The notes: generated by a model from the letters alone, not told the origin. A stretch of DNA of 64,000 nucleotides from Candidatus Limnocylindria bacterium (GCA_038250515.1 JBBSCG010000003.1:23675-87674), one strand, 5' to 3'. Counted from the first letter of the stretch, positions 9,591 through 48,485 are shown. Numbers and translations are program-made.

Positions 9591-10917
9591 CCGCCTGGAC
9601 CAGGCCGAGTGCGCCGCGGCCCACCATGTTGAAGGCGTGCGTCACCATCGGGTAGAGGCCGTCCTCCGCTGTGGTGAACTCGACGATCCCGCCCTGGGCC
9701 GGGGAGAGGTCGACCGCCTGCGAGCCCCAGTTGCCGTCGTTGCCGCGCTTGAGGTGGATGCCCTCCTTGATCACGTCGTCGAAGATCGTGCCGACAATAT
9801 GGAAGGAGCTGTCCACGTCCGGACCGGCGTCCAGCACGAAGACGCGCACCCGCGCACCGGTCGCGACCTTGATCGGGTTGTCCTTGTACTGGTTGGCGAT
9901 GCCGTTGAAGACCACGAAGTCTGGAGCCGGAGCGGCGGCGGAGGCCTTCTCGAGGCTGGCCGGCTGGCCCTGCGGGCCGAGATACCACTCGCTCTGCACG
10001 ATGGCATACTCGGCGTCAACCTTGGGCAGGCCGGCTGTTGGCTCGACGATGATCATGCCGTACATGCCGTTGGCGATGTGCTGCAGGGTCGGGTTGGTGC
10101 CACAGTGGTACATCCACACGCCTGCGTGCTCGGCGGTGAACTCGTAGAGCTTCTCCTCGCCGGGAGCGATATCGGTCATCTCGTCGTTCCAGGCAACCAT
10201 GCTGGCATGGAAGTCAATCGAGTGCGTCATCTGGCTTGTCGCCGGATTCTTGAGATGGATGCGCACCGTGTCTCCGACCTTGACGCGCAGCACCGGACCG
10301 GGGACGCTCCCGTTGAAGGTCCACACCTTCTGCACGTAGCCATCGGCGACGGTCATCAGCTTCTCCTCGGCGACGAGGTCGATGTCATGCACCTTGCCGG
10401 GCAGGGCCTTCGGCGCGGTGGCGTCGCGCGGCTCGTACTTCGGCGCCTTCGGGTCCTTCGCGACGTCCAGCGTCGGTGCCGACCCACCATGGTCCCCGGT
10501 GCCCGCGGCTGGAGAGGCGGCAGTACCCGCGGCGGCTGCGCCGGCGACCGTGATCGTGCTCTTCATGCCTGCGGCGGCGTGACCCGGAACGGAGCAGATG
10601 AAGCCGATCCCGGCTGCCGGCACGTCGACTTCCACGGTCACGGTCTTGCCCGGCGCGGCGACCCCGGATGCTCCATCAGCGAAGGTGATGTCGTGCGGCA
10701 TCTTGCCGTCGTTGGTGAACTTCACCGTGTAGCGCCCGGCCTCTGGCACCTCGACCATCGTCGGCTGGAACGCCAGGTCAATGGCGTGAACTTCCACGAC
10801 GCCCAGCGATGCGGCCGGCGCTTCGGCACGAGTCGGCTGATCCGACACCTGTGCGTAGATCAAGGTCAGCAACGACATGCTGACGAATGCGGCGATGAAG
10901 ATGATTGCCCTGGTCAT
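9568..10917 (-). CDS. nirK: Copper-containing nitrite reductase (NirK) with N-terminal cupredoxin-domain fusion and signal anchor
   Basis: Motifs HSIDFHA, HCGTNPTLQHIANGMYGMIIVEP (type 1 Cu Cys/His/Met) and an N-terminal plastocyanin-like block (PHDITFADG ... CSVPGHAAAGM). Start refined to the ATG for MTRAIIFIAAF (TM/signal). Confidence 0.85.
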   Translation of the reverse strand: MTRAIIFIAAFVSMSLLTLIYAQVSDQPTRAEAPAASLGVVEVHAIDLAFQPTMVEVPEAGRYTVKFTNDGKMPHDITFADGASGVAAPGKTVTVEVDVPAAGIGFICSVPGHAAAGMKSTITVAGAAAAGTAASPAAGTGDHGGSAPTLDVAKDPKAPKYEPRDATAPKALPGKVHDIDLVAEEKLMTVADGYVQKVWTFNGSVPGPVLRVKVGDTVRIHLKNPATSQMTHSIDFHASMVAWNDEMTDIAPGEEKLYEFTAEHAGVWMYHCGTNPTLQHIANGMYGMIIVEPTAGLPKVDAEYAIVQSEWYLGPQGQPASLEKASAAAPAPDFVVFNGIANQYKDNPIKVATGARVRVFVLDAGPDVDSSFHIVGTIFDDVIKEGIHLKRGNDGNWGSQAVDLSPAQGGIVEFTTAEDGLYPMVTHAFNMVGRGALGLVQAGDGDPLN

Positions 10918-14142: not shown

Positions 14143-14215
14143 GGACGCCTGCGGCAACGGCCATCGGGCCGATATCGCTGGCCCGATGGCTGATCGCCCC
14201 AAATGCTGCAGCGAA
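14143..14215. repeat. Intergenic repeat element (family A)
   Basis: See 16757..16845. About 35 nt upstream of the MFS start at 14251. Confidence 0.7.
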
Positions 14216-14250
14216 TAGGCCGAGTCCCCCTGAGCCGATAGACTCCCGCC

Positions 14251-16645: not shown

Positions 16646-16756
16646 GAGCACGTAGCCTACCGTCGGCGTCGGGCCGACTTGCAGCATTTGGTCGTAACGG
16701 CCAGCAGGGACGCAAATCGGCCCAATCGAGCCGGCTCGTTGGCCGACAGCAATCAG

Positions 16757-16845
16757 CCGGTGCAAAAACGGCCATCGGGGGCCGAATCTCGATGTCCCGG
16801 TGGCAGATACGGCCAAATGCTGCAAGGCCAACCATTTGGCCCGAC
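16757..16845. repeat. Intergenic repeat element (family A), contains GTCCCGGTGGCAGAT and CCAAATGCTGCA
   Basis: Related to 14143..14215 (AACGGCCATCGGG, GCCGA(T/A)ATC, CCAAATGCTGCAG blocks). About 20 nt upstream of the copA start. Confidence 0.7.
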
Positions 16846-16865
16846 GCGGTATACTCCCCGGTAGT

Positions 16866-27922: not shown

Positions 27923-27998
27923 GCGGGAGTAGCTCAGTTGGTAGAGCGTCAGCCTTCCAAGCTGAATGTCGCGAGTTCGAACCTCGTCTCCCGCTCCA
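27923..27998 (+). tRNA. tRNA-Gly (anticodon TCC)
   Basis: Cloverleaf by eye: acceptor GCGGGAG/CTCCCGC, D-arm GCTCAGTTGGTAGAGC, anticodon stem TCAGC/GCTGA with loop CTTCCAA, T-arm GCGAGTTCGAACCTCGT, encoded CCA. Confidence 0.85.
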
Positions 27999-28091
27999 AA
28001 GCACATCGGTGGCTGCCTGAATGGCAGAAAGCACTCCGAGGTCGCCTCGAGCAGGGGGCAGCGGGGCTGGCCTACGGCCCTGGCCTGGCGC

Positions 28092-30614
28092 ATGATGACC
28101 GTCGTGCGCTCTGATCTCCCCAGCGGCACCGTCACCTTCCTGTTCACCGACATCGAGGGTTCGACCAGGCTGTTGCACGAGATCGAGGCTGAGGCCTATG
28201 CCGATGCCCTGGCCGAGCACCGCCGCATCGTGCGCGAGGCGTTCCGGGCCGAGGGCGGGGTAGAGGTCGACACCCAGGGGGATGCCTTCTTCGTGGCCTT
28301 TCCAACCGCGCCAGGCGCTCTGCGGGCAGCGGCTGCGGCGAACGAAGGACTGGCGCCGGGTCCGATCCGCGTGCGGATGGCCATCCACACCGGCACGCCG
28401 TACCTGACCGAGGAGGGCTACGTCGGGGTCGACGTCCACCGCGGTGCGCGCATCGCGGCGTCCGGCCACGGCGGCCAGGTGCTCGTCTCAGCCTCCACGG
28501 CTGCCCTCCTTGGCACGGATGGGCTGCGTAACCTGGGCGAGCACCGCCTCAAGGACCTTTCGGCACCCGAGCGCATTTACCAGCTCGGCGACGACGACTT
28601 TCCGGCACTCAAGTCGCTGTATCGGACCAACCTGCCGGTACCGGCGACCCCGTTTCTGGGTCGCGAGCGGGAGCTGGCCGAAGTGGTCAAGCTCCTGGAG
28701 CACGACGACCTACATCTGCTCACCCTGACCGGGCCGGGCGGCACCGGCAAGACGCGGCTCGCCCTGCAGGCCGCGGCGGAGGCTTCCGAGTCCTTCCCCG
28801 ACGGCATCTACTGGGTGCCACTCGCGCCCCTGCGCGACCCCGAACTCGTGCTCTCATCGGTTGCGCGGACGCTTGAAGTCAATGAAGAGCCCGATCGCCC
28901 CATCCAGGACACGCTCAGCGCGCACCTGGCGGGCAAGCGCCTGTTGCTCGTCCTCGACAACCTCGAGCACCTGTTGCCGCAGGCGACCGCACCGATCGCC
29001 GCACTCCGTGACGCAAACGGGTCTTCCCTCCTGGTGACGAGCCGCGAGCGGCTGCGGATCCGCGGCGAGCAAACCTGGCCGGTGCCGCCGCTCGCCGACA
29101 AGGACGGGGCGGCGCTGTTCGTGGCTCGTGCGCAAGCGGTCGACCCGTCCTTCACCCACACCCCCGCAGTTGACGAACTGTGCGCTCGACTCGACGAGCT
29201 TCCGCTGGCGATCGAACTCGCCGCCGCCCGCACCGCGGTCTTCTCGAGCGCGCAGTTGCTCGAGCGACTGTCCGGGCGCCTTGACCTGCTCAAAGGTGAG
29301 CGCGACGCCGATCCGCGCCAGCAGACGCTGCGCGCCACCATCGAATGGAGTCACGCCCTGCTCGCACCGCCGGAGGCACAACTCTTCCGCGGGCTCGCGG
29401 TCTTTGCCGGCGGCTGCACGTATGACGCCGCCGAGCAGGTCTCGGGCGCGGACCCCGACACCCTGCAATCGCTCCTCGACAAAAGCCTTCTGCGCAAACG
29501 GGATGCCGCCTACGGGCCTCGTTACTGGATGCTCGAAACGATCCGCGAGTTCGCCGCCGAGCGGCTCGAGGAGTCGGGCGAGGCCGAGCCGTCACAGCGG
29601 CGGCACGCCGAGCACTTCATGGCCCTGGCCCAGGACGCGGAGCCGAATACACGCTCGTACTCCGCCGAGTGGATCGAGCGGCTAGAGATGGAGCATGACA
29701 ATCTGCGCGCCGCGCTCGACTACCTCGCGGCCTCAGGCGAAAACGAACTGGTCTTGCGATTGGCCGGAGCCCTGTCGGATTTCTGGCACTACGGGGGGCA
29801 CGTCGCCGAGGGCTGGCGTCGTCTCGAGAGCGCACTCGAACCAGAGGAGCGCCCGACGGCGGCCCGTGCCAGGGCCCTCACTGGGGCTGCCGACATGGCG
29901 TATGGGAGCGGAGATGCTGCAACAGCCAGGTTGATGGCCGAGAAGGCGCTCGCGCTCCATCGCCAGCTTGGGGACACGTGGGGCGCCGCATATGCGCTGA
30001 ACCTGCTCGGCGTGGCCTTCATCGAGGAAGGAGACTTCGAGCGGGCGCAGCAGCTCGTCGAAGAGGCAGTAGATCTCTTCCGCCGGCTCGGCGATGACCA
30101 GTTCACGCTCGCGGCAACTCGCACTCTGGCATTCGCTTACTACAGCCGCGGCGACCTCGACCGCGCCCGCACGCTCCACGAAGCGAACCTTCGCCGGGCG
30201 AGAGCGGGGGGCATGAAGGAGACCGAGGCTGGGACGTTGGGCTCCCTGGCGATCATTGCCGTCGACCAGGGCCGCGTCGATGACGCGCTCGCGTTGGTGA
30301 AGGAAAACGTATTGGTCGCGCGCGACCTTGGCTCCGCGCACGGAATCGCGCAGAGTCTCTGTCGCGCCGCCGATGTTCTCGCCCGGTTCCTCGGGAATGC
30401 GCACGCGGCCGCCCAACTCCTCTCCTGCTTCGAGGGCCTGCGACAGCAGATCGGCGTCAGCGAGGCCTGGGTCTCGAGGATGAACGAGCAGACGCTCGCG
30501 GCCGTCCACGCGCAACTCGACGCCGCCGCCTTTGCCGACGCATGGGAGCAAGGCCGGAAGCTGACGGTCGACGAGGCCGTCGCGCTCGCCCTCGGCTCGG
30601 TTGAACCGGCATGA
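28092..30614 (+). CDS. Class III adenylate/guanylate cyclase fused to AAA/NB-ARC-like ATPase and TPR repeats
   Basis: FLFTDIEGST ... TQGDAFF cyclase core, Walker A GPGGTGKT, C-terminal TPR-like repeats. Start refined to the ATG for MMTVVRSD. The longer ORF start would overlap the tRNA. Confidence 0.85.
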   Translation: MMTVVRSDLPSGTVTFLFTDIEGSTRLLHEIEAEAYADALAEHRRIVREAFRAEGGVEVDTQGDAFFVAFPTAPGALRAAAAANEGLAPGPIRVRMAIHTGTPYLTEEGYVGVDVHRGARIAASGHGGQVLVSASTAALLGTDGLRNLGEHRLKDLSAPERIYQLGDDDFPALKSLYRTNLPVPATPFLGRERELAEVVKLLEHDDLHLLTLTGPGGTGKTRLALQAAAEASESFPDGIYWVPLAPLRDPELVLSSVARTLEVNEEPDRPIQDTLSAHLAGKRLLLVLDNLEHLLPQATAPIAALRDANGSSLLVTSRERLRIRGEQTWPVPPLADKDGAALFVARAQAVDPSFTHTPAVDELCARLDELPLAIELAAARTAVFSSAQLLERLSGRLDLLKGERDADPRQQTLRATIEWSHALLAPPEAQLFRGLAVFAGGCTYDAAEQVSGADPDTLQSLLDKSLLRKRDAAYGPRYWMLETIREFAAERLEESGEAEPSQRRHAEHFMALAQDAEPNTRSYSAEWIERLEMEHDNLRAALDYLAASGENELVLRLAGALSDFWHYGGHVAEGWRRLESALEPEERPTAARARALTGAADMAYGSGDAATARLMAEKALALHRQLGDTWGAAYALNLLGVAFIEEGDFERAQQLVEEAVDLFRRLGDDQFTLAATRTLAFAYYSRGDLDRARTLHEANLRRARAGGMKETEAGTLGSLAIIAVDQGRVDDALALVKENVLVARDLGSAHGIAQSLCRAADVLARFLGNAHAAAQLLSCFEGLRQQIGVSEAWVSRMNEQTLAAVHAQLDAAAFADAWEQGRKLTVDEAVALALGSVEPA

Positions 30615-31024
30615 CGGAGTCACGTTCTGACCTCCCCTCCGGCACGGTCACCTTCCTGTTCACCGACATCGAGGGATCGACCAAGCTGTTGCACCAGCTC
30701 GGAGCCGAGGCGTATGCCGATGCCCTGGCCGAGACCCGGCGCGCTGCGCGCAGCGGCTGCGGTGACCGACGGGCTGGCCCATGGTCCGATCCGGGTGCGG
30801 ATGGCCATCCATACCGGCACGCCGCACCTGGGCGAGGAGGGCTACGTCGGCAGCGACGTGCACCGCGGCGCCCGCATCGCGGCGTCCGGCCACGGCGTGC
30901 TATCGATGAGCGACGGCGGCTCGTGGACCGGTGTGCTACCGAGGCGGACGCTGCCCGGCTGTGGGCCGATGGGCAGGCGATGAGCGTAGACGAGGCCGTC
31001 GCCTACGCGCTCATTGTCAGCTGA
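30611..31024 (+). pseudogene. Internally deleted, frameshifted duplicate of the upstream adenylate cyclase gene
   Basis: Starts (ATGA overlap) with MTESRSDLPSGTVTFLFTDIEGSTKLL, identical in pattern to the intact gene. The cyclase continues in a second frame (IRVRMAIHTGTPHLGEEGYVGSDVHRGARIAASGHG). It ends with a tail like the intact C-terminus (SVDEAVAYAL vs TVDEAVALAL). Confidence 0.7.
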
Positions 31025-31230: not shown

Positions 31231-31280
31231 CCGGCCTTCCAAGGTCGATGTCGCGGGTTCGAACCCCGTCTCCCGCTCCA
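31231..31280 (+). other. 3' remnant of a tRNA-Gly(TCC)-like gene (anticodon loop through CCA; no 5' half)
   Basis: CCTTCCAAG ... GTCGCGGGTTCGAACCCCGTCTCCCGCTCCA parallels positions 27956..27998 of the intact tRNA. No D-arm or acceptor 5' strand upstream. Confidence 0.6.
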
Positions 31281-31304
31281 AATTTCCCACCGCGCGACAA
31301 CGCG

Positions 31305-34566: not shown

Positions 34567-34648
34567 CCGTTCCGTCCCACGGCATCCGACGTTGCAAGCC
34601 CCCGACCGCCCCATGCCGCGACCGAGCAGGCTGGACGCCAAGTACGCC

Positions 34649-34750
34649 TAATGGGCCGATGCGGAACCGGTATCTCAGCGCACCGCCGCCAAAGCGGCGT
34701 AATGGGCCGATGCGGAACCGGTATTTCAGCGCACCGCCGCGAGGCCGCCC
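34649..34750. repeat. Tandem direct repeat, 2 copies of about 51 bp
   Basis: TAATGGGCCGATGCGGAACCGGTAT(C/T)TCAGCGCACCGCCGC repeated at 34649 and 34700 with one mismatch. Intergenic. Confidence 0.8.
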
Positions 34751-37881: not shown

Positions 37882-38754
37882 TTAGTGGAGCCGGCCTCCG
37901 CCGCCGCCCCCCGGCTCGCCGTTGCCGCCGCGGTCACGCAGGAATCGCTCGATATCCGCGATGAGCTCGTCGCCCTCCGGCAGCCGCGACTGGTCGGCCA
38001 GCAGCTCCAGCCGCGCCACGTGCGCCTTGGTGTCACTGTCCGATGCGGCCGCCGCATCCAACTGGGTGCGCCGCTCCAGCGCACGGGTCGCCAGGGAACC
38101 CATCGGCACATCCACGCCGAGGTACTTCGCCAACATGTCCAGCAGCGCGATCGACGCCGCGGGATACGACGCGTTGACGTAATGCGGCACCTGGGCGAAG
38201 AAGCCGACCGCCGGGATCCCCGCCGCCGCAACCTCCACCTCCAGGACCGATAGCGCCGCCGCCGGCACCCGCAGCAGCCCGTCCGGACCCTGCTTGGTTC
38301 CCTCCGGCAGCAGACCATCGGCCGATGCGGTGGCCAGCACCGGCACCTGCCGCGTGTGCGGCACCGCCGCCGGGATGGCGCCCAGGCTGGCCCAACCGAC
38401 CACGCCGAAGCGCCGCGCCAGGTCGACAACGTCCGAGGCGAGCTGGTGCCAGCGGTAATCGGGCTCGGCGCCGAGCAGGACAAGCAGGTCGCGCTCGCCG
38501 ACGCGTGTGTGGGTGAGCGTGAGCGCCGACCATTCGAGGCGCATCGGTCGACCGTCGACGATATCCAGGGTCGGACGGCGTACGCGGTAGTCGAAGATCG
38601 CATCCTGGTCGAAGGCCGCGATGACGTCGCCATCCTCGGCCAGCTGCGCCGCCGCGCTCGTCCCGGCGCCACCGGCATCCACCCAGCCCTCCAGCGCCGC
38701 CACGATGACCGGCGCGGTCAGCTGGGGTTCATCGTGGATCTCGTAGAGCGGCAT
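37882..38754 (-). CDS. PAC2-family protein
   Basis: 290 aa. PVIVAALEGWVDAGGAG N-terminus characteristic of actinobacterial PAC2-family proteins. Confidence 0.75.
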   Translation of the reverse strand: MPLYEIHDEPQLTAPVIVAALEGWVDAGGAGTSAAAQLAEDGDVIAAFDQDAIFDYRVRRPTLDIVDGRPMRLEWSALTLTHTRVGERDLLVLLGAEPDYRWHQLASDVVDLARRFGVVGWASLGAIPAAVPHTRQVPVLATASADGLLPEGTKQGPDGLLRVPAAALSVLEVEVAAAGIPAVGFFAQVPHYVNASYPAASIALLDMLAKYLGVDVPMGSLATRALERRTQLDAAAASDSDTKAHVARLELLADQSRLPEGDELIADIERFLRDRGGNGEPGGGGGGRLH

Positions 38755-39246
38755 GCGGTGAAGTCTACGGCGGGGTGCATAGCGTGGCGTTCAGCGAGCT
38801 TTGGCCATCGCCTGCATCCAGGCCTCGGTATCGATCTCGAGCCACCGGTCATCACAAATGCCGGTTTCGATCGGCGCGCGTTCGACATGATCATCCGCTT
38901 CAGTGCCGTGCGCGCGGGGGTTGAGGGTTACACGCGATTTCGAGACTGCCAGGCACAGTTGCGCTCATGCTTCCTGAAGCAGCGCGATGCCGGCGTCGAA
39001 CGCCTGTTCATCGTGGTAAAGGGAACGCGCCACAATCGCCTCGCTGTCGCGGCCGTTGGTGACCTCATCTTGGCTGCTCTCCCGCTCGGCACGCGCCAGG
39101 TGCTTACGGCACTGGCCGCCGGCCGCGATCCAGGTGCCAACGGGCTGGTTTTTCTGTAGTCGCTCGTCGCCACCGCTGGCGCCACGATCGCCTTTGTCAC
39201 CCGCTGGAGGTACCAACCAAGAAAAGGCGGTTATCGGGGCTGCCGG

Positions 39247-39348
39247 CCTGCAAATCGGCCGCACGCTGACCGAAACCGCCAACCTGAGACCGGTTTTGGC
39301 GGCTACTTGTTCGTTAGCTCCGGAGAACACCTCCACCCGGTGGCAAAT
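39247..39348. repeat. About 100-nt intergenic repeat element (family B) ending in CTCCACCCGGTGGCAAAT
   Basis: See 46977..47050. Upstream of the MFS gene at 39463. Confidence 0.75.
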
Positions 39349-39462
39349 TGACCGCTCATCCCTTCAGTCCCCGATCCACCCGGCGGAACGACATCGAACG
39401 AAGACTGACCGATGCCGCCGTCTCGCCTGCAGCCGGGCCGCCCCATCGCGTAACGTGCGGCC

Positions 39463-40692
39463 GTGGCCATTCCCCCCGCCGCCGACGCGCTCGTTCGACC
39501 GATTCGGACGTTGTGGCTGCTCGCCGGTGCGCATGCCGTCAACCATGCCCTCGCAATCCTGATGCCGCTGGTCTACCTGCAGGTCATTCGCGAAATGCAC
39601 GTCGATGGGGCGGCGATCGCCATCCTGACCGCGGTGGGCAGCCTCAGCTCGGGCCTGGCGCAGTTGGCGTACAGCGGGCTGACCCGCGTCTTCTCGCGTC
39701 GCTCGATCCTGGTTCTCGGCGGCCTGCTGCTCGGTGGCGGGATGGCCGTGCAGGGGCTCGTCAGCAACTTCACCGCATTCTCGGCGGCCAATATCGCCTC
39801 GAAGGTCGGTGGCTCGCCGCAACACCCGGTCGGCAACGCATTGCTGGCGGAGCAGTTTCCGCCGCACCGACGCGGATTCGCCATCAGTGCCCATATCTCC
39901 GGCGGCAACGTGGGAACGCTGGCGGTGCCGCTGATCGGGACGTGGCTGATCGCCGGCATCGGCTGGCGCAACACGGTGATCCTCTTCGGCGTGCCGGGGA
40001 TCCTGATCGCCATCGCCATCGCGGCGCTCGTCCGCGAGTCGGGATCGGACCGCGAAGCAGCCCGTGCACACGGCAACCTGGCGGATGGCTTCCGGCGGGT
40101 GTTCCATGACCGCGACCTGCTGCTGCTCTACTTCGCCTCGACCGTCGCGGCCGGCGGTCGCGGCCTGGGTGTCATCACCCTGTTCGTGCCGCTCTACCTG
40201 TCCGAGGTCCTGCACCTCGACACCGCGACCATCGGCTGGATGTACACCGTCCTGCTGCTCGGCAGCGTGCCTGCGCCGCTCGCCGCGGGGTGGCTGTCGG
40301 ACCGCATCGGTCGACGACCGGTCATCCTCGTGGCCTACCTGCTGGCCGCGGCCGGCATGGCGCTGTTCGTCGCATCCGGCCAAAACCAGGCCGGCGTGTG
40401 GGCGGCGATCGCAGTCATGAGCGTGTTCGCCTACGTCGAGAGCCCGCAGTTGCAGGCGATCCTGGCCGATATTTCGCCGCCGGCCATCCGCGACACCGCC
40501 TTCTCGACCTACTTCACGCTTGCCTTCGGCGTCGGCTCCCTGTGGACGGCGGTCTTCGGCGTCATCCTCGGTGCGGCCGGCGATACGGCGGGCCTGCCGA
40601 TCGTCTTTTGGATCATGGCCGCCACCTTCGTTGCCGGAGGTTTGGCCGTCTTACCGATACGGACCACGCCTCACGACGGACACCCGGCGTGA
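39463..40692 (+). CDS. MFS transporter
   Basis: 409 aa, 12 TM helices, GTG start. Confidence 0.8.
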   Translation: MAIPPAADALVRPIRTLWLLAGAHAVNHALAILMPLVYLQVIREMHVDGAAIAILTAVGSLSSGLAQLAYSGLTRVFSRRSILVLGGLLLGGGMAVQGLVSNFTAFSAANIASKVGGSPQHPVGNALLAEQFPPHRRGFAISAHISGGNVGTLAVPLIGTWLIAGIGWRNTVILFGVPGILIAIAIAALVRESGSDREAARAHGNLADGFRRVFHDRDLLLLYFASTVAAGGRGLGVITLFVPLYLSEVLHLDTATIGWMYTVLLLGSVPAPLAAGWLSDRIGRRPVILVAYLLAAAGMALFVASGQNQAGVWAAIAVMSVFAYVESPQLQAILADISPPAIRDTAFSTYFTLAFGVGSLWTAVFGVILGAAGDTAGLPIVFWIMAATFVAGGLAVLPIRTTPHDGHPA

Positions 40693-42338
40693 ACGCGGCG
40701 GATCTCGTCTTCGTCAACGCGAGCGTCCTGACCATGGACCCGGCGCGCAGCACCGCCTCCGCCGTGGCCGTGCGGAACGGCCGAATCGTCACGGTGGGCG
40801 CAGATCACGACGTCGCCCACCTGGTTGGCCCGCGCACACGGCGCCTGGATCTCGAAGGCCGCACGCTGCTCCCGTCGTTTCAGGACGCGCACGTCCATCC
40901 CTCGTCGGCGGGCGTGAAGCTGATGCGATGCCCCCTCTACGACCTGCCGCCATCGCTCGATGCCTACCTGGAGGCGATCGCCGCCTACGCCGCCGACCAC
41001 CCGGAGAAGCCATGGATCATCGGCAGCGGTTGGTATATGGAAGCGTTCCCGGGCGGGGCGCCGTCGCGCCGCGACCTCGATCGGGTCGTGCCGGATCGGC
41101 CGGCGTTTTTCACCGACCGCGACGGGCATCGGGCCTGGCTCAACAGCCGCGCGCTGGAGCTCGTCGGATTCGACCGCGAGACAGCCGACCCGCCCGACGG
41201 ACGCATCGAGCGGGAGCCAAACAACACGCCGGCGGGCACAATCCACGAAGGCGCGATGGAGCGAGCCAGCCGGTTCTTGCCGGAGACGACGCTCGATGAG
41301 GTCGTCGCAGGCATCGGTCTCGCGCAGGTGTACCTCAACCGACTGGGGATCACGGCCTGGCAGGATGCCTGGGTGACCCCACTGGAGCTCGAGGCCTACC
41401 GGCGCCTGGCCGAGGAGCGGAAGCTGACCGCCCGCGTGATCGCGGCGCACTGGTGGGAGCGCGAGCAGGGCGCTGAGCAGGTCGGGTCCATCATTGAGCG
41501 GCGCGAACGCGGCACCGTCGGCCGGCTGCGAGCCGATACGGTGAAGATCATGCTCGACGGCGTCGCCGAGAACTTCACCGCCGCCATGCTCAAGCCCTAC
41601 CTGGATGGCTCTGGCCGTCCAACCGAGAACCGCGGGCTGAGCTTCGTCGACCCTCAGCTGCTCAAGACGTACGTCACGCAGCTCGACGCGCTGGGCTTCC
41701 AGGTGCACTTCCATGCCCTGGGCGACCGTGCGGTGCGCGAGGCGCTCGACGCCATCGAGGCCGCGCTGCGGGCTAATGGCGACAGCGACCGGCGGCATCA
41801 CCTGGCGCATCTGCAGATGATTGACCCTGCGGACACTCCGCGGTTCGCGGCCCTCGGCGCGGTCGCAAATATCCAGCCCTACTGGGCCTGCCACGACGCG
41901 CAGATGGACGACTACACCATCCCGTTCCTGCCCGCCCATCGCGTTCGTTTTCAGTACCCATTCGCGAGCCTGCTGCGCGCGGGCGTGGTGCTGGCCGGCG
42001 GCAGCGACTGGACGGTCAGCACGCCCAATGTGCTGATGGAGGTCGAGACCGCCGTCAACCGGGTCTCGCCCGAGGACCGCTTGGCTGCGCCATTCCTGCC
42101 GGACGAAGCCCTTGAACCGATGCAGGCGCTGGCGGCGTACACCATCGGGACCGCCTATGTGAACCACCTCGAGACCGATACCGGCTCGATCGAGCCGGGC
42201 AAGTCCGCGGACCTCGTGGTGCTCGACCGCGACGTGCTGGACTGCGGCGCCGGGCACTTGGGGGAGGCGGCGGTGCTCATGACCCTGCTCGAGGGCGAGG
42301 TCCTGCGCGAAGGATTGGAGCTGGCCGGGCTCGGCTGA
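40689..42338 (+). CDS. Amidohydrolase-family metal-dependent hydrolase (Amidohydro_3/YtcJ-like)
   Basis: QDAHVHP metal-binding motif, about 549 aa. GTG start overlaps the upstream stop (GTGA). Confidence 0.8.
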   Translation: MNAADLVFVNASVLTMDPARSTASAVAVRNGRIVTVGADHDVAHLVGPRTRRLDLEGRTLLPSFQDAHVHPSSAGVKLMRCPLYDLPPSLDAYLEAIAAYAADHPEKPWIIGSGWYMEAFPGGAPSRRDLDRVVPDRPAFFTDRDGHRAWLNSRALELVGFDRETADPPDGRIEREPNNTPAGTIHEGAMERASRFLPETTLDEVVAGIGLAQVYLNRLGITAWQDAWVTPLELEAYRRLAEERKLTARVIAAHWWEREQGAEQVGSIIERRERGTVGRLRADTVKIMLDGVAENFTAAMLKPYLDGSGRPTENRGLSFVDPQLLKTYVTQLDALGFQVHFHALGDRAVREALDAIEAALRANGDSDRRHHLAHLQMIDPADTPRFAALGAVANIQPYWACHDAQMDDYTIPFLPAHRVRFQYPFASLLRAGVVLAGGSDWTVSTPNVLMEVETAVNRVSPEDRLAAPFLPDEALEPMQALAAYTIGTAYVNHLETDTGSIEPGKSADLVVLDRDVLDCGAGHLGEAAVLMTLLEGEVLREGLELAGLG

Positions 42339-42447
42339 CGCGGAGGTCGTCGTCCAAGACGCGGTCGCGGCCGGCTGAAGCTGCCAAATTTACACCACTC
42401 ATGCGTTAGGCTCGGTGAGGCCCGCTCGGAGCGTCCGCATTCCCGTC

Positions 42448-42846
42448 CTACACAGGCTCCCGCAGCGGAAGGCCATACGCCTTCATGGACCGATCGAACG
42501 TCAGGAGTGGCGACGCGCCTGCTTCACGGCACGCACCGACGATCAGCGCGTCCGGGATCGGGCGACCGGGTGCGCCGCGCGCCTGCACCAGCGCGTCGAC
42601 CGCCGTTTCGTTGCGCATGCCCAGCAGGACGATGTTCTCGCGCAGCAGCAGCTCGATCAGGCTGTGAATGATGTCGGCCTGGTCGACACCGTACTGGGTT
42701 CGCAGCACGTGTGCGCACTCAACGAGTCCCACCAGCGACAGTCCGATGCGCTGCGTGCCATTGATCACGCGCGCCGCCCGAGCGGCGGCTGCTGACGGAG
42801 TCCCGACGAGGTAACGGACGATCAGCGACGTGTCCGCACCGATCAC
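42448..42846 (-). CDS. vapC: PIN-domain toxin VapC
   Basis: PIN acidic residues (D5 ..., D near the C-terminus), 132 aa. Overlaps the upstream antitoxin. Confidence 0.8.
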   Translation of the reverse strand: MIGADTSLIVRYLVGTPSAAAARAARVINGTQRIGLSLVGLVECAHVLRTQYGVDQADIIHSLIELLLRENIVLLGMRNETAVDALVQARGAPGRPIPDALIVGACREAGASPLLTFDRSMKAYGLPLREPV

Positions 42847-43100
42847 GCGGATCGGTCCGGGTCAGGCGTCTCCCACGCCGCGCGTCGAAGGGCCGGCCAG
42901 GACTCGTCCGACGGTTGCTTTCGAATCTTGTCCTTGAGGCTGCCGGCGAGCGAACGAGTGTGCCGGCCAGGAACGAACTCGATCACGACGCGGCCCTGTT
43001 CGATGCGCTGCACTGCTCCGTCGCCCGGATACACGCCCAGCTCTTCTCGAATCGCCTTCTCGAGCGTGATCTGGCCTCGCTCACCAACCCGACTGACCAT
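42843..43100 (-). CDS. vapB: AbrB/SpoVT-type antitoxin VapB
   Basis: 85 aa. GQITLEKAIREELGV swapped-hairpin motif. Confidence 0.75.
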   Translation of the reverse strand: MVSRVGERGQITLEKAIREELGVYPGDGAVQRIEQGRVVIEFVPGRHTRSLAGSLKDKIRKQPSDESWPALRRAAWETPDPDRSA

Positions 43101-43225
43101 GTCGCCACCACGATATGAATGCTTGACGGGAGTATGAATCCCACTCGGATGTACGTCAACGGCCGCTCGCGCCGGCCGCGCATGAGACGTATTGACAAGC
43201 GTACCGTCAAGCGTATCGTGGACCG

Positions 43226-43501
43226 ATGAAGTCCATCCCCATCACCGACCTCCGACAGCGCGCTGCTGACGTCATCGATGACGCCCGCACCAGCGACGAG
43301 CCGACCGTCATCCTGCAGCGATCGCGGAAGGCGGCGTACCTCGTCAGTCCGGATCGGTACGAGCGCGACCAGGAGGAGCTGCGCACACTTCGCCGAGCAC
43401 TCTTCGTGGCCGAGGTCCGCGAGGCAGAGGCGGAATACACGGCCGGCACGGCTTCGTCGTTCGAAGACATGGAGGAGCTGCTGGCCGAGCTCCGGCGTTG
43501 A
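43226..43501 (+). CDS. Phd/YefM-family antitoxin
   Basis: ITDLRQRAADVIDDARTSDEPTVILQRSRKAAYLVSPDRYE, typical Phd/YefM. Confidence 0.8.
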   Translation: MKSIPITDLRQRAADVIDDARTSDEPTVILQRSRKAAYLVSPDRYERDQEELRTLRRALFVAEVREAEAEYTAGTASSFEDMEELLAELRR

Positions 43502-43758
43502 GGATGCGGCTGAGCGCATCCCGCCGGTTCGTTCGGCGAGTGAAGAAGCTGCGAGAGCCGCAGGCGACCATGCTGCGTGCAGCGCTGCGTCGGTTCGCCG
43601 CGGACCCGGGCGATCCCCTCCTGCGCGTCCATAAACTGAAGGGCGAGCTGGCGGACTACTGGGCGTTCAGCGTCGACGACGACCTGCGCGTGCTGTTCCG
43701 ATGGAACGGCGACGAAGTCTTTCTGGTCAACCTCGGCTGCCACGAAGAGGTGTACTGA
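43498..43758 (+). CDS. relE: RelE/ParE-family toxin
   Basis: 86 aa. ...RVHKLKGELADYWAFSVDDDLRVLFRW...VFLVNLGCHEEVY. ATGA overlap with the antitoxin. Confidence 0.8.
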   Translation: MRMRLSASRRFVRRVKKLREPQATMLRAALRRFAADPGDPLLRVHKLKGELADYWAFSVDDDLRVLFRWNGDEVFLVNLGCHEEVY

Positions 43759-43766
43759 CGGTCGGG

Positions 43767-45740
43767 GTGACGACGGCAGCATCGGTCCTGGATGGCCTCA
43801 ATGAGGAACAGCGCGAGGCTGCCATGGCGACAAGCGGCCCGGTTGCCATCCTCGCAGGCGCGGGCACGGGCAAGACGCGAGTGATCAGCCACCGCGTCGC
43901 GTATGCGGTCGCGACCCGCGTCGTGGATCCCAAGCGCATCCTCGTCGTGACGTTCACCGAGAAGGCGGCGACGGAGATGAAGCATCGGCTGAGCCGGCTG
44001 GGACTGCCAGGGGTGGCGGCTTCGACCTTTCACTCGGCTGCCAAGCGACAGCTCGAGTTCTACTGGCCGCGTCTGCATGGCCAGCCGCTGCCGAATGTGC
44101 TGGATTCAAAGCTGGGCATTGTCATTCCACTCGCTCGCCAACTGCCCGGCGGATACAAGTTCACGCCAGCCAAAGACCTGGCCGATGAGATTGAATGGGC
44201 CAAAGCCCGTCGCATCGGTCCTGGGGAGTACGCGGCCGAGGCCGCGCGAGCGCATCGGGAGTCGCCCATTCCTGCCGACGTGTTTCAAACGGTGTATCGC
44301 CGCTACGAACAGGGCAAGCAGCGGGCGGGTGTCATCGATTTCGAGGACATGCTCAGCCTGGCGGTTGACCTGTACGAGACCGATGCGGATGCCGCCGCCC
44401 TCGTGCGGCAGCGCTACGACTGGTTCTCGGTCGACGAGTACCAGGACACCAACCGGCTGCAGGAGGATCTGCTTCGCCTGTGGCTGGGCGATCGACGCGA
44501 TCTCTGCGTCGTCGGCGATGAAAACCAGACGATCTACAGCTTCACCGGCGCGACCGCGGACTACCTGACGACCTTCAAGGACCGATATCCCGGCTGCCGC
44601 GTCATCAATCTCACGCAGAACTACCGCAGCACGCCGCAGATCCTGGCGCTGGCCAACCGGCTGATCGCGAGCTCGGGCCAACTGAGAGCGACGCTCGACG
44701 ACGGCAGCGAGCCAAGCCTGGTCGCCTACGCGAACGGGGCTCAGGAGGAATCGGCGATTGTCGCTGCGATTCGTCAACACGCGAGCAGGCAAATGCAGCT
44801 GACCGAGATCGCGATCCTGGTGCGCACCAACGCGCAGCTTGTGCCGTTCGAGTCGGCGCTGACTCGGGCGGGCATTCCGTTCACCGTTCGCGGCCAGCGC
44901 TTCTTCGCTCGGGCAGAGGTTCGGGCGGCACGGCAGGCGCTGAGCAGCGGTCGTGCAACCGGCACATTGGAAGAGGTGCTCGCAGCTCGATGGCGGACGA
45001 TCCTGGGCTTCGATGAGCAGGAGCCATCGGGTCCAGGTGCCGAGGCACGTGACCGACACGCGTCGCTGCTGACGCTGCTGGGCATCGCGCGGGAGCTCGT
45101 CGCACGCGAGCCGGACGCCACGGTCACCGACTACCTCACCGAGCTGCAGCGTCGCGATGGCGATGAGGCTGCAGCCGGCGGTGCGGGCGTGGTGCTCTCC
45201 ACGTACCACCGGGCGAAGGGACTCGAATGGGATGTCGTCTTCCTGCCGATGCTGGAGGATGGGACGCTGCCCAGTCGCCAGTCACTGAGCGACGACGCCG
45301 CGGTGCGGGAAGAGCGACGGCTGCTGTACGTCGGCATCACGCGGGCACGCAAACAGTTGGCGGTGTCCTGGGCAGCGCAGCGCCTGAACCCCAAGGGCGG
45401 CGTCGCACGGGCGAAGCCCTCACGCTTCATTGCGGAGCTGCATCCAGGGCGCGTGATGCGCCCGACGGCTGCAACAGCGGTTCCACCCGCCGGCGCGGCC
45501 CCGGCCAAGGGCGCCGCGGCCGACCTGTACGAGGCGCTCCGGTCGTGGCGCATCAAGCGTGCGCGAACCGACGGCGTGCCTGCGTACGTCGTCGCCGACA
45601 ACAAGACGCTCACCGCAGTGGCGACGGAGAGACCGATGAACGCGGCCGAGCTGCTCGCCGTTCCCGGCATGGGACCGCACCGCGTCGCGACCTATGGAGC
45701 GGAGATGCTGCAGATCATCGCTTCGGCGTCTGAGAAATAG
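43767..45740 (+). CDS. UvrD/PcrA-family SF1 DNA helicase with C-terminal HRDC-like domain (UvrD2-like)
   Basis: Walker A GAGTGKTRV, DEYQDTN motif, VTFTEKAA motif, C-terminal HRDC-like tail (LYEALRSWR ... VVADNKTL). GTG start assumed. Confidence 0.85.
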   Translation: MTTAASVLDGLNEEQREAAMATSGPVAILAGAGTGKTRVISHRVAYAVATRVVDPKRILVVTFTEKAATEMKHRLSRLGLPGVAASTFHSAAKRQLEFYWPRLHGQPLPNVLDSKLGIVIPLARQLPGGYKFTPAKDLADEIEWAKARRIGPGEYAAEAARAHRESPIPADVFQTVYRRYEQGKQRAGVIDFEDMLSLAVDLYETDADAAALVRQRYDWFSVDEYQDTNRLQEDLLRLWLGDRRDLCVVGDENQTIYSFTGATADYLTTFKDRYPGCRVINLTQNYRSTPQILALANRLIASSGQLRATLDDGSEPSLVAYANGAQEESAIVAAIRQHASRQMQLTEIAILVRTNAQLVPFESALTRAGIPFTVRGQRFFARAEVRAARQALSSGRATGTLEEVLAARWRTILGFDEQEPSGPGAEARDRHASLLTLLGIARELVAREPDATVTDYLTELQRRDGDEAAAGGAGVVLSTYHRAKGLEWDVVFLPMLEDGTLPSRQSLSDDAAVREERRLLYVGITRARKQLAVSWAAQRLNPKGGVARAKPSRFIAELHPGRVMRPTAATAVPPAGAAPAKGAAADLYEALRSWRIKRARTDGVPAYVVADNKTLTAVATERPMNAAELLAVPGMGPHRVATYGAEMLQIIASASEK

Positions 45741-46137: not shown

Positions 46138-46521
46138 TCAGGAAGGCGACGCGACGACGAGTCCGACAGCACGAGCAGCATCGGCCAAGCGAAGGTCATA
46201 TGTGACGAACGCCTCGAGCGTCTCAGCGAACGCGAGGGCGGAAGCCAGGTGGATCGCATCCAGGGATCGAAGGGTGTTGGGTAGCAAACGCCCAGCGAGC
46301 TCCGCAATCGCTGCATCCAGCTCCACGTAGTCCAGGAAGCCCATCACGGCCGGAATCTCGCCCAATGCGTCAGGCCTGCGCGACCCCACTGCCCGCGCGA
46401 TCTCAACAGACAGAACGCGGCTGCTGACGCGTGCGGAACAGCTCTCCAGATACGAGATAAGCGCACTCGTTTCCGCCTCCGCGACCACGAGCTTCACTGC
46501 GGCCGACGCATCGAGGTACAC
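46138..46521 (-). CDS. vapC: PIN-domain toxin VapC
   Basis: MYLDASAAVKLV ... PIN fold signature, 127 aa. Confidence 0.75.
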   Translation of the reverse strand: MYLDASAAVKLVVAEAETSALISYLESCSARVSSRVLSVEIARAVGSRRPDALGEIPAVMGFLDYVELDAAIAELAGRLLPNTLRSLDAIHLASALAFAETLEAFVTYDLRLADAARAVGLVVASPS

Positions 46522-46526
46522 CGGCG

Positions 46527-46832
46527 CTACCAGGGTTCCTCCTCCCGCATCTCGATGATGATCTGCGACAGCGGCTTCCCGCCGGTCGCGGGCAGCGGGG
46601 GCGGCAAGTCCTCCCAGCGCCGGGTCGCCAACGTGATGCGGCCGTCCGCCACCATCTGCTCATATACCGATGTGGTTCGGCCCTCGAGGGGAGTCAGCCG
46701 CGCCACCGGCTCACCACGCTCGGTCACCTCGTACGCGCGCCCCTCCTCACGCACGCGCTTCACGTACACAGATAGATTCTGCCGCAGCTCGCGGATCCCC
46801 ACGCGCTCAGGCCCTGGCTTCCTGGTGCTCAT
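46527..46832 (-). CDS. Phd/YefM-type antitoxin partner of VapC
   Basis: VGIRELRQNLSVYVKRVREEGRAYEVTERGEPVARLTP. Start refined to the ATG for MSTRKPG. Confidence 0.7.
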   Translation of the reverse strand: MSTRKPGPERVGIRELRQNLSVYVKRVREEGRAYEVTERGEPVARLTPLEGRTTSVYEQMVADGRITLATRRWEDLPPPLPATGGKPLSQIIIEMREEEPW

Positions 46833-46895
46833 GACGCACAATTGTAGCACATCAACGCCGCCGAACCAGCCGCGCATGGCCAGAAGTGGCCGATG

Positions 46896-46910
46896 TGCCA
46901 CCGGGTGGAG
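46896..46910. repeat. Palindrome-like 15-mer TGCCACCGGGTGGAG, reverse complement of the motif at 47030 and 39331
   Basis: Exact reverse complement of CTCCACCCGGTGGCA. 64 nt upstream of the antitoxin start at 46832. Confidence 0.8.
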
Positions 46911-46976
46911 ATAACGGCGAAGATGAGGCTCTCGCAGGCCTGATTCAGCCCGCTTCGTCGCCGCTTCTGCCACCTG

Positions 46977-47050
46977 CTGACCGAAACCGCCAACTCGGGG
47001 CCGATTCGCACGGCAACTTGTCCGTTAGCTCCACCCGGTGGCAGATCGGC
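46977..47050. repeat. About 75-nt intergenic repeat element (family B) ending in CTCCACCCGGTGGCAGAT
   Basis: Shares the blocks CTGACCGAAACCGCCAAC, ACTTGT(T/C)CGTTAGCTCC and CACCCGGTGGCA with 39247..39348. Confidence 0.75.
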
Positions 47051-47158
47051 GCGATCACAGCCGCGCTGTCGCCTCTCTGGGGTCGCCTCAGCCGCCTGAG
47101 GACCGCGCCAGCTCGGGATGGGTCGAGGTGATCTCCCCGGCGAGGTCAATGACCGCCG

Positions 47159-48259
47159 CTACAGCGCGACCCCGACCAGTACCGGCTCGGGCTGCAGCAC
47201 GACGCCGAACTCCGCCTGCACGCGGCCTTGCACGAACCTGGCTAGCTCCACGATCTCGGCCGCGGTCGCCCCGCCCCTGTTGATCAGCGCGAGTGTGTGC
47301 TTGCTCGATATCGCGGCGCGCGACCCCGGCAACGCAAAGCCGCGCATGATACCGGACCGTTCGATCAGCCACGCAGCGCTCAACTTCACCCGAGAATCGG
47401 CCGGCCACCGCGGCGCGGCAGCTGGCAGCGAGCGCCCAATGTCTTCACTCACGATCGGATTGGTGAAGAACGAACCGGCACTCACCGAGTCCGGATCCGC
47501 GGCATCCAGCACCATGCCCTTCGATGCTCGGAGGGCCAGCACCGCACGCCGCAAGTCGGCCAGCGGAACGCGCTCGCCGACACGAACACCGAGGGTCGTT
47601 GCCAGCTGTCCGTACGCCACCGGCTGGCTGAGCGCAGATGACTCGTCTGCGCCGGCCGAGCCCGCGCCGTCCTCGAACACGTCCAGCTCGATCGCCAGAA
47701 TGATGCCGCGAACAAGGCCCGCCTTGACCCTGGACGTCCGGTACCCCAGTTTGAGCTCGGAGGCGAGAACCCGCGAGGCTGCACGGGTCTCGAAGTCCAA
47801 CAAGTGCACAGCGACGAGGCTCTCCGAGAGTTCCTGTCCGTAGGCGCCGATGTTCTGCACGGGTGCCGCACCGCAGCATCCGGGGATGCCCGATAAGGCT
47901 TCGATCCCGGTCCAGCCCTGATCGACGGTGTACGCGACCAGGTTGTCCCACGGCTCGCCGGCCTGCACGCGGAGGCGGACCGTGCCGTTTTGCTGCGGAA
48001 CGTCCAGCTGCTCGATGCCCCTCGTGACCAGGCGGATCACCGTCCCCTCGAACCCCTTATCGCTGGTGACGGTATTCGACCCGCCGCCGACCAGCAGCCA
48101 GTCATCGTCCCTGTCCCAGACTTCGAGGGCATCGGCCACGAGCTCCAGTTCAGTTCGCGGCGCGATCATGCGTTCGGGCGGACCGCCCACACGCAACGTG
48201 GTCAGCGCCGACAGCGGCACAATTGGCGGCTCAATTGGCGATAACGGGCCGGCGGTCAT
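47159..48259 (-). CDS. murB: UDP-N-acetylenolpyruvoylglucosamine reductase MurB
   Basis: FAD-binding LVGGGSN, NIGAYG and GSFFTNP motifs. Start refined to the ATG for MTAGPLSPIE. Confidence 0.85.
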   Translation of the reverse strand: MTAGPLSPIEPPIVPLSALTTLRVGGPPERMIAPRTELELVADALEVWDRDDDWLLVGGGSNTVTSDKGFEGTVIRLVTRGIEQLDVPQQNGTVRLRVQAGEPWDNLVAYTVDQGWTGIEALSGIPGCCGAAPVQNIGAYGQELSESLVAVHLLDFETRAASRVLASELKLGYRTSRVKAGLVRGIILAIELDVFEDGAGSAGADESSALSQPVAYGQLATTLGVRVGERVPLADLRRAVLALRASKGMVLDAADPDSVSAGSFFTNPIVSEDIGRSLPAAAPRWPADSRVKLSAAWLIERSGIMRGFALPGSRAAISSKHTLALINRGGATAAEIVELARFVQGRVQAEFGVVLQPEPVLVGVAL

Positions 48260-48485
48260 GTCGCCCGCACTGTGCGAGACTGACGGGGGTCTGCGCCAAC
48301 CCGGCCCATGGCGGGCACCTCTTTGCTGTCGCAGGGATTCTCCCACGATCCGCATTGCTCCTCCACTCGTTGAACAGGGCGTTGCCAAGGATCAGGTTGG
48401 CGCCTCAATGCTGCCACCACCTGTTGGTACACGCTTCGAACCTCCGGCGCCGTGTCCGGCACTCGGTGCCTTGGCGCCTTGACTT

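Follow-up and report, generated by a model that had tools for sequence, protein, structure and literature searches.

Among systems in which dispersed palindromic repeats flank a cognate gene, only the repetitive extragenic palindromic (REP) sequences of Proteobacteria, with their REPIN doublets and RAYT proteins, have been studied well. In Pseudomonas and Enterobacteria these systems consist of short palindromes arranged as inverted extragenic doublets; the gene is flanked by the repeats, the repeat sequence coevolves with the protein, and the system persists vertically in its lineage (PMC3116915, PMC3337134, PMC3733652). The hallmark of a REP is a GTAG or CGTC tag at one end of the palindromic unit (PMC3733652). 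We analyzed a 64,000-nucleotide stretch of DNA from Candidatus Limnocylindria bacterium (GCA_038250515.1, JBBSCG010000003.1:23675-87674), referred to here as the window, which carries two copies, A and B, of a ~160-bp element built from three palindromic sites. In related Chloroflexota such elements bracket a gene for a lineage-specific helix-turn-helix (HTH) protein with a nuclease-like C-terminal domain. The logic is the same as that of REP/REPIN-RAYT, but the protein is a different one, the architecture has three phased sites, and the host phylum is an uncultivated one from soil. In the literature searched, neither a module of this kind nor any repeats from Limnocylindria are described.

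Other described systems share features with these elements. In lambdoid phages the tripartite operators OL and OR flank the gene for the repressor, an XRE-type HTH protein (e.g., 434 and P22 c2). Phage Mu (L1–L3 and R1–R3) and Tn7 (the TnsB sites) have multisite ends, and TnsA is a PD-(D/E)XK nuclease that acts in Tn7 transposition. Miniature inverted-repeat transposable elements (MITEs) are a further point of comparison. REP/REPIN sequences typically number tens to hundreds per genome. Most insertion sequence (IS) families make target duplications far shorter than 20–26 bp, and we know of no target duplication in REPIN insertion.

The 15-mer CTCCACCCGGTGGCA has three exact matches in the window, at 39331–39345 and 47029–47043 on the plus strand and at 46896–46910 on the minus strand. 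An earlier note on this DNA had recorded these copies, and the one at 39331 is where it was placed. The second starts at 47029, one base before the position given, and its inverted pairing with the 46896 copy is real, with a spacing of 118 nt rather than 119 nt. No copy occurred in any of 100 dinucleotide-preserving shuffles of the window, which is 68% G+C (mean 0.00 matches). With up to three mismatches there were 12 matches compared to 4.09 expected, and 12 was reached in 0 of 100 shuffles. The repetition of the 15-mer in the window is beyond chance. The copies at 46896 and 47029 lie at the center of a longer imperfect inverted repeat (46889–46925/47014–47050; 37 nt, 86% complementary) that is the strongest local inverted repeat of the window, and the copy at 39331 is paired with a degenerate arm, TGTCACCCGCTGGAG, at 39195. 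The window holds two copies of the ~160-bp element (Table 1), and the 15-mers form the cores of its terminal inverted arms. The suggestion that they mark the conserved end of a small repeat is thereby borne out (nhmmer scores of 125 bits for A and 95 bits for B). Copies in the related loci L150 and L151 reveal the fuller motif as TGCCAC-NNN-GTGGAG with a free center (CCG, CGG, CGC, GGG, or CCC).

A profile built from 12 elements finds exactly A and B in the window, and the forward orientation scores far better than the reverse. For A the match covers 46886–47050 with 125.5 bits, and the reverse orientation gives 58 bits. The center of the interior site of A is 72 bp from that of site 1 and 61 bp from that of site 3. 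A 57-nt interior block is common to B (39265–39321) and A (46976–47032) with 81% identity, and B carries a 13-nt internal duplication ahead of its right arm. A shortened variant of the 15-mer, GTCCCGGTGGCAGAT, is present at 16794–16808 as reported; its membership in the same family is not demonstrable, since the element profile scores it at E = 0.82.

Thirteen further copies of the element were found in seven related genomes. The relatives' loci were fetched by way of neighboring genes, all except L013; they include L155 (GCA_964552085.1), L157 (GCA_040007635.1), L150 (ERZ25039564 contig_16027), and L159 (ERZ25039492 contig_7943). Three full elements are present in L150/L151, a close relative whose PAC2-family protein is 89% identical, together with a tandem array of a 60-nt unit that consists of one element arm plus a spacer (L150 8326–8626, L151 8390–8610). 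The array has five copies in the L150 sample and four in the L151 sample of the same species. Two elements were found in L154, three in L155 (one of them a further dispersed copy detected by the profile), and two in L156, and elements are also present in L157 and L159. Loci of the related genomes L152, L153, L022, and L023 (~44 kb) that lack the HTH-nuclease gene contain none. The motif is not specific to this genome, contrary to the earlier suggestion: at least seven genomes or metagenome contigs of related Chloroflexota carry copies. When 185,579 species genomes were scanned for the inverted-pair pattern, 20 matches were returned. Eighteen were chance or coding matches, several of them in one conserved helicase-like gene, one (L019) is doubtful, and the only clear relative was L013, from a Chloroflexia metagenome-assembled genome. 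The viral scan with the 15-mer gave 61 singletons and the metagenome scan with an 18-mer gave 65, all of them chance or coding matches apart from the metagenome contig L123.

The alignment of 12 elements from six genomes gives a common plan: a left site with a ~15-nt tail, an interior site with its own tail, and a right site. The interior third site has the consensus G(C/T)CAC-NNN-(G/C)TGAC. The whole ~150-bp architecture, including the tails outside the sites, is copied at unrelated loci (A, L150_1, L155_3, and L013). The copy number is low: the 64-kb window has two elements, and in L150 and L155 the surroundings of the HTH-nuclease gene hold three to four per 20 kb. Copies within one genome are 55–68% identical in the window, L150, L154, and L156, 86–89% identical in L155, and 97% identical in L159.

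Sites in 15 elements conform to YCAC-N3-GTGR, with conserved half-sites and a variable center triplet. The center-to-center spacings between sites are 51, 60–62, 72, 82, and 92 bp, which correspond to five to nine turns of ~10.2 bp. The sole exception is B, with its internal duplication. Phasing at ~10.2 bp is a property of double-helical DNA and thus argues against an RNA or a single-strand hairpin as the conserved entity. The combination of a CAC-N3-GTG palindrome, a variable center, and helical phasing points to a dimeric DNA-binding protein, for which the palindromes would be putative binding sites on double-stranded DNA. The earlier proposal of a binding site for a global regulator was therefore right in kind. 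Its detail is probably wrong, because the candidate is a dedicated XRE-HTH/nuclease-like protein and there are only two copies in 64 kb.

A structured RNA (a small RNA, an mRNA stabilizer, or a long terminator hairpin that follows murB) or a VapB operator is very unlikely to account for the elements. Folding of the interval does yield a very stable structure (−96 kcal/mol, z = −6.9 for the minus strand of A), A is located past the murB stop and ahead of vapB, and covariation between the arms exceeds that of shuffles (1/500). However, the interior alone is unstructured and poorly conserved, A and B are oppositely oriented relative to local transcription, and what is conserved is three palindromes with helical phasing. 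The center is mostly unpaired between the arms (center columns are unpaired in 3–10 of 12 sequences). No Rfam family, tRNA, or terminator-like site accounts for A or B; only tRNA-Gly passes the gathering threshold in the window, and a local E-value search returned only matches with E > 1. A promoter and terminator scan of 46700–47300 found nothing, and there is no U-tract terminator. The likely vapB promoter has a TACAAT box at 46841–46846, 8 nt before the ATG, a position that suggests a leaderless vapB transcript. The inverted pair does not lie around the antitoxin promoter, as had been proposed: both arms are upstream of the vapB start (46832) and of the TACAAT box, and they extend outward from ~50 nt upstream of the box. 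The same element also occurs at loci that have no toxin–antitoxin genes. An integron attC site was rejected for lack of the R''/R' core sequences.

Two elements bracket a 224-aa gene in L150, and its product combines an XRE-type HTH (HTH_31) with a C-terminal part of ~130 aa. All six full-length genes of this family that were examined have an element no more than 150 nt upstream (it overlaps the annotated start in L159), and four of the six have one within ~35 nt downstream, as does the truncated copy in the window. The gene-adjacent elements that were scored by the profile are co-oriented with the gene in eight of eight cases, and the repeats flanking the L159 gene are likewise. In L155 and L156 the upstream array ends 36–45 nt before the start codon, beside a conserved GGTAAGC box. 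The half-sites differ between lineages along with the protein. GCCAC/GTGGAG half-sites are found in the window, L150, and L154, where protein identity is 66–100%; TTCAC/GTGAA half-sites in L155 and mixed kinds in L156, at 56–57% identity; TTCGC/GCGAA half-sites in L157, at 53%; and RYCAC/GTGRC half-sites in L159, at 43%. The predicted recognition helix shifts alongside the half-sites (...LRRER, ...LRTER, ...LDTER, and ...GRVER). The arm pairs 28/217 and 29/216 show changes on both sides.

This arrangement invites comparison with REP/RAYT, and mobilization of the elements as a REP/REPIN family by a RAYT, an IS200/IS605-like tyrosine transposase, is conceivable in principle. The elements are short palindromic units in inverted doublets that could form a long hairpin (fold z −2.9 to −6.9), they are extragenic, and they lie on both sides of a single gene, an arrangement also known from RAYT genes (PMC3337134, PMC3733652). 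Like REPINs, the elements persist in their lineage by vertical descent. The flanked gene, however, encodes an XRE-HTH and a domain with a PD-(D/E)XK-like, restriction endonuclease-like predicted fold and not an HUH/Y1 tyrosine transposase, and no Y1 transposase or RAYT gene was seen in the loci examined. The stem of each palindrome is only 4–6 bp, and its variable 3-nt center does not covary between the arms. The element sites are flanked by GGAG(A/C/G)TA..., ...TAGCTCCAC, and similar sequences, and the GTAG/CGTC tag is absent next to the palindrome. The third interior site, the strict ~10.2-bp phasing, the low copy number seen, and the long duplications that flank copies in L155 are further differences from REPIN-RAYT. 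We consider this explanation extremely improbable.

The window retains a remnant of the gene. A tblastn search of the window with the L150 protein matches residues 105–224 with 67.5% identity (E = 5e-50). B starts 34 nt after the stop of this truncated gene and L150_2 starts 30 nt after the stop in L150, in the same orientation; B ends 116 nt before the start of a gene for a major facilitator superfamily (MFS) transporter. The earlier statement that all copies are intergenic and near gene starts holds, yet B also lies just past the stop of the truncated gene. A small minus-strand open reading frame that runs through B (38965–39336) was rejected, as homology favors the truncated gene on the plus strand. 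Orthology of B to L150_3 was considered because both lie upstream of PAC2 and was rejected because the flanks are not homologous; B matches instead the element downstream of the HTH gene.

A UvrD-family helicase gene directly follows the HTH-nuclease gene in L154 (7303–10134) and L157 (10001–14445), with UvrD plus HRDC in one and UvrD plus PDDEXK_1 in the other. The order in L154 is PAC2, element, HTH gene, uvrD, element. The order in the window is PAC2, truncated gene, B, a group of three genes (MFS transporter, amidohydrolase, and PIN toxin), uvrD, vapCB, A. The window thus retains the HTH/nuclease-like gene and uvrD at 38797–45740, 4.5 kb apart. A shares the arm sequence GTGGCCGATGTGCCAC...GTGGAGCTAACGGACAAG with the post-uvrD element of L154 and, judged from position and arm similarity, probably corresponds to it. 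The recurrent adjacency of UvrD is a hint of some functional connection to DNA repair or unwinding.

The protein family is a small one, in which nearly all members are ~217 aa long and have the same two-part architecture. A word-indexed search found 115 proteins, and an exhaustive search with the C-terminal domain found 748 clusters at 50% identity. The C-terminal domain has no covering model in Pfam, NCBIfam, PADLOC, or PHROGs. AlphaFold2 models have predicted local distance difference test scores of 94 (full length) and 92 (a C-terminal-only member), and the predicted C-terminal core is alpha-beta-beta-beta-alpha-beta. In Foldseek searches of the PDB, HTH repressors, antitoxins, and C-proteins were the sole matches of the full model. 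The best matches of the C-terminal model are almost all nucleases of the restriction endonuclease fold, and the matches include Bax1, the R2 endonuclease domain, AF1548, OkrAI, BspD6I, EcoT38I, McrC, Hjc, PspGI, and Can2. E107, D117, R119, and K153 are invariant in the family, and D122 and E135 are nearly so. A nuclease active site whose lysine is displaced would be compatible with these residues. It is plausible but not proven that the C-terminal domain is a PD-(D/E)XK-like nuclease.

The youngest copies are those in L155 (86–89% identity), and here flanking repeats are present. Two copies of a perfect 20-mer, found nowhere else in the loci compared, flank the element-gene-element unit as a whole. 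A solo element 4 kb from the unit is flanked by a pair of 26-mers of another sequence, which differ from each other by one mismatch and one indel. The flank-pair scores are 20 for the 20-mer and 16 for the 26-mer, compared to a null maximum of 10. The repeats look like target duplications at two independent insertions. The predicted empty sites are AACGCAATCTCCGTGCCGCGTCCGTCATGATGGGAGC for the unit removed and CCCCGCAA(G/T)ACGGGAATCT(T)CAGTAC for the solo element. No significant flanking repeat was found at A, at B, or at the L150, L154, L156, and L159 copies. In the relatives L022 and L023 synteny with the window ends exactly at the murB stop, so no empty-site comparison is available there. 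Movement of the elements, if any, is rare.

The flanking repeats raise the possibility of an ordinary MITE of a DDE insertion sequence located elsewhere, with the HTH-nuclease gene as a coincidental or preferred target. The elements resemble MITEs in their terminal inverted repeats, their size (140–200 bp), and their noncoding, intergenic nature; their presence among relatives is patchy, a larger gene-carrying unit shares the outer ends, and direct repeats flank two insertions in L155. No transposase with these ends was found in about 250 kb (the window plus the related loci), and the candidate enzyme is neither a DDE transposase nor any recognized transposase. The gene unit consists of two full elements in direct orientation around the gene and not of one pair of ends. 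A palindrome within the arm that recurs a third time inside the element at a phased distance is unusual for MITE ends. One gene family is associated and co-oriented with the elements across six lineages, and the motif covaries with it. The duplications are of variable length and, at 20–26 bp, too long for most IS families; the copies are not near-identical, and most are strongly diverged. These features make an ordinary MITE unlikely.

Our preferred explanation, which we regard as an even call, is a protein-plus-repeat module that is or was mobile. The 15-mer would be the core of a palindrome bound by the protein, TGCCAC-N3-GTGGAG, and three such sites on the same helix face, two terminal and inverted and one interior, make up the ~160-bp element. 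The elements would be the cis-acting sites of a lineage-specific protein with an N-terminal XRE HTH and a C-terminal domain of predicted PD-(D/E)XK fold. The gene is normally bracketed by one upstream and one downstream element, both oriented with it. The module and solo elements would have inserted at new sites with duplication of 20–26 bp of target, and the solo copies would be MITE- or REPIN-like nonautonomous derivatives of a small selfish or domesticated module. In the window only a decayed remnant of the module is left: the HTH half of the gene is gone, B is the downstream element, and a vapBC cassette lies between uvrD and A. The data establish the element family, its three-site phased architecture, its association with the gene, the covariation, and the flanking repeats in L155. 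Binding of the sites by this protein, nuclease activity of its C-terminal domain, and mobilization of the elements by it are inferred.

A stronger version, which we put forward only tentatively, is that the element-gene-element unit is an autonomous mobile element of an undescribed kind with the XRE-HTH/PD-(D/E)XK fusion as the mobilizing enzyme. Such an element would have three-site phased ends and long, variable (20–26 bp) target duplications, and it would seed solo copies of ~150 bp. By analogy it may be a counterpart of RAYT/REPIN on a different enzyme fold, so far seen only in uncultivated soil Chloroflexota, and this too we consider somewhat doubtful. Mu and Tn7 offer a parallel, with several phased binding sites per end and, in TnsA, a protein of the restriction endonuclease fold that acts in transposition. 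They differ in that the unit described here is a single small gene with no TnsB- or MuA-like DDE partner nearby and that its duplications are 20–26 bp rather than 5 bp.

Several observations weigh against a mobile module. The copies that are only 55–68% identical within a genome are old and diverged, a pattern more in keeping with functional sites of long standing than with a mobile element that moved recently. The 64 kb hold just two copies, repeats that resemble target duplications occur in L155 only, and A is flanked by nothing more than a 9-mer (p about 0.04). The sample of loci is biased toward the protein gene by the way in which it was collected, and the element in L013 has no HTH-nuclease gene within its 8 kb. 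The C-terminal fold matches are weak (best E = 8.8e-3, Foldseek probability up to 0.98 for Bax1, TM scores of 0.3–0.43), and the conserved lysine is on the following helix and not in the usual strand/(D/E)xK motif.

A purely regulatory explanation is a serious competitor, although one that we are inclined to doubt. The elements would be operator modules for an XRE-family transcription factor that binds cooperatively and loops the DNA between two three-site arrays. The protein would regulate its own gene and nearby genes such as uvrD, its C-terminal domain would serve in oligomerization or ligand sensing, and the dispersed copies would be regulon members or old segmental duplications and not mobile. 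The three helically phased palindromes per array, the arrays on both sides of the regulator gene with the upstream one near the start and the GGTAAGC box (L155 and L156), the similarity of the HTH to repressors, C-proteins, and antitoxins, and the recurrent adjacency of UvrD-family helicase genes all agree with this. So does the conservation of sites and spacing in old, diverged copies. The lambdoid OL/OR system is the closest model: it shares the XRE-type HTH, three palindromic sites per array, and an array on each side of the gene, and the phasing of the elements is compatible with cooperative binding and looping. However, the lambdoid sites are adjacent and those of the elements 50–90 bp apart, the arrays described here are ~150-bp repeat units that also occur elsewhere in the genome, and a nuclease-like domain takes the place of the lambda-type oligomerization or cleavage domain. 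There is no phage context, and the viral scan gave only chance matches. The regulatory explanation is also difficult to square with the copying of the whole ~150-bp architecture, including nonsite tails, at unrelated loci, with the 20–26-bp direct repeats around both the solo copy and the whole unit in L155, with the tandem amplification of an element arm to varying copy number, and with the predicted nuclease fold and its invariant acidic residues. A itself is in no obvious operator position, since it lies downstream of murB and at least ~50 nt upstream of the −10 box of vapB.

Should the protein mobilize the elements, the chemistry of transposition or the path to domestication would be a new one; should its role be regulatory only, the module would be a compact case of looping operators copied around a genome. 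Either way there are testable predictions: the sequence bound, the residues to mutate, and the empty-site sequences. The interest rests with the family and not with the window locus, which has a truncated gene and two old elements. The element repeats may also account for assembly breaks at module loci, for example in L154, where the contig terminates within the right arm of an element (10298–10466; …CTCCACCCCGG). This contig end suggests that element repeats break metagenome assemblies.

Table 1. Positions of the elements, their sites, and associated features in the 64-kb window
Feature	Position	Strand	Description
Element A	46886–47052	+	Complete ~165-bp three-site element between murB stop and vapB promoter
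A site 1 (left arm core)	46896–46910	+	TGCCAC-CGG-GTGGAG
A site 2 (interior, degenerate palindrome)	46968–46982	+	TGCCAC-CTG-CTGACC, then conserved tail GAAACCGCCAAC
A site 3 (right arm core)	47029–47043	+	CTCCAC-CCG-GTGGCA
Element B	39189–39350	+	Second copy, nhmmer 95.1 bits
B site 1 (degenerate left arm)	39195–39209	+	TGTCAC-CCG-CTGGAG
B site 2 (interior, degenerate)	39257–39271	+	GGCCGC-ACG-CTGACC
B site 3	39331–39345	+	CTCCAC-CCG-GTGGCA
Truncated family gene	38797–39159	+	C-terminal ~120 aa, HTH half missing; divergent PAC2 starts at 38754
UvrD-type helicase with HRDC domain	43701–45740	+	Pfam
vapC PIN-domain toxin	46138–46521	−	Pfam
vapB-like Phd/YefM antitoxin	46527–46832	−	Pfam; alternative start 46877
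murB	47159–48355	−	Stop codon 107 nt from A
Hairpin C	16678–16826	+	Holds the 16794–16808 variant; 31-nt inverted repeat at 84%, fold z = −6.4

B sits in a 700-nt gap between the PAC2-family gene on the minus strand and the MFS transporter gene on the plus strand. PIN-domain toxin loci are located on either side of the uvrD-like gene, at 42448–42861 and 46138–46832, both on the minus strand, and ribbon-helix-helix/PIN pairs are also found near the module in L150 and L155. Boxes of the form TANNNT lie 7–10 nt before the starts of several genes: TACAAT at 46841–46846 for vapB, TAGACT in the 38770–38775 region for PAC2, TATACT at 16852–16857 for a copper P-type ATPase, and TAGACT at 14235–14241 for a second MFS transporter. 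Their closeness to the starts suggests that leaderless transcripts are common in the host organism. Upstream of PAC2, conservation between the window and L150 is confined to the box and the start. The taxonomic signal is mixed. The best named relatives of MurB are from Microbacteriaceae (~65% identity), and PAC2 (37882–38754) and the HTH family are closest to Limnocylindria/Chloroflexota (85–89%). Either poor sampling of the lineage or horizontal acquisition of murB could be the cause.

Other repeats were seen outside the window. The contig L123 (Ga0308309_10029074, 72% G+C), from a different organism, carries a 29-nt unit, CTCCACCCGGTGGCAGATCGGCCGAGCAA, six times in tandem at its start (20–190). 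The array lies just upstream of a family-4 uracil-DNA glycosylase gene, and its unit is identical to the right end of A over 22 nt; the 3.8-kb contig has no HTH-nuclease gene. G+C-rich simple repeats at L150 9728–9950 and L154 7188–7227 (CGACCCGGCGA-like 8–11-mers and GCGGCGGGTC 10-mers) occupy the space between the upstream element and the start of the neighboring gene.

Hairpin C is the second-strongest hairpin of the window and is similar to the element in size and shape. The variant that it holds shares a 13-mer with the 15-mer. A partial relative, D, is located at 14156–14210, and C and D are 79% identical over 58 nt. With C at only E = 0.82 against the element profile, C and D cannot be called members of the family and were rejected as such; they may form a separate, possibly related hairpin family. 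Both end in CCAAATGCTGCA(A)G ~40 nt before gene starts, those of the copper P-type ATPase (16869) and the MFS transporter (14251). C also carries a 9-bp inverted repeat, GGCCAAATG-N13-CATTTGGCC. The TATACT box immediately ahead of the ATPase start is overlapped by a palindrome, ATACT-N7-AGTAT, which is a possible operator for a metal regulator.

Elsewhere in the window, a 49-nt direct repeat (90%) of the 3' half of tRNA-Gly(TCC) (27923–27998) is found at 31234–31282. The two copies bracket ~3.3 kb with one large gene (27966–30614) for a protein that combines an adenylate/guanylate cyclase, an NB-ARC/STAND ATPase, and TPR repeats, and internal repeats of 84–87% are present in the region (28107–28473 compared to 30623–30897). 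The arrangement resembles either the integration of a small element at the tRNA or a duplication. At 34636–34737 a 51-nt unit is present in two tandem copies with 88% identity.

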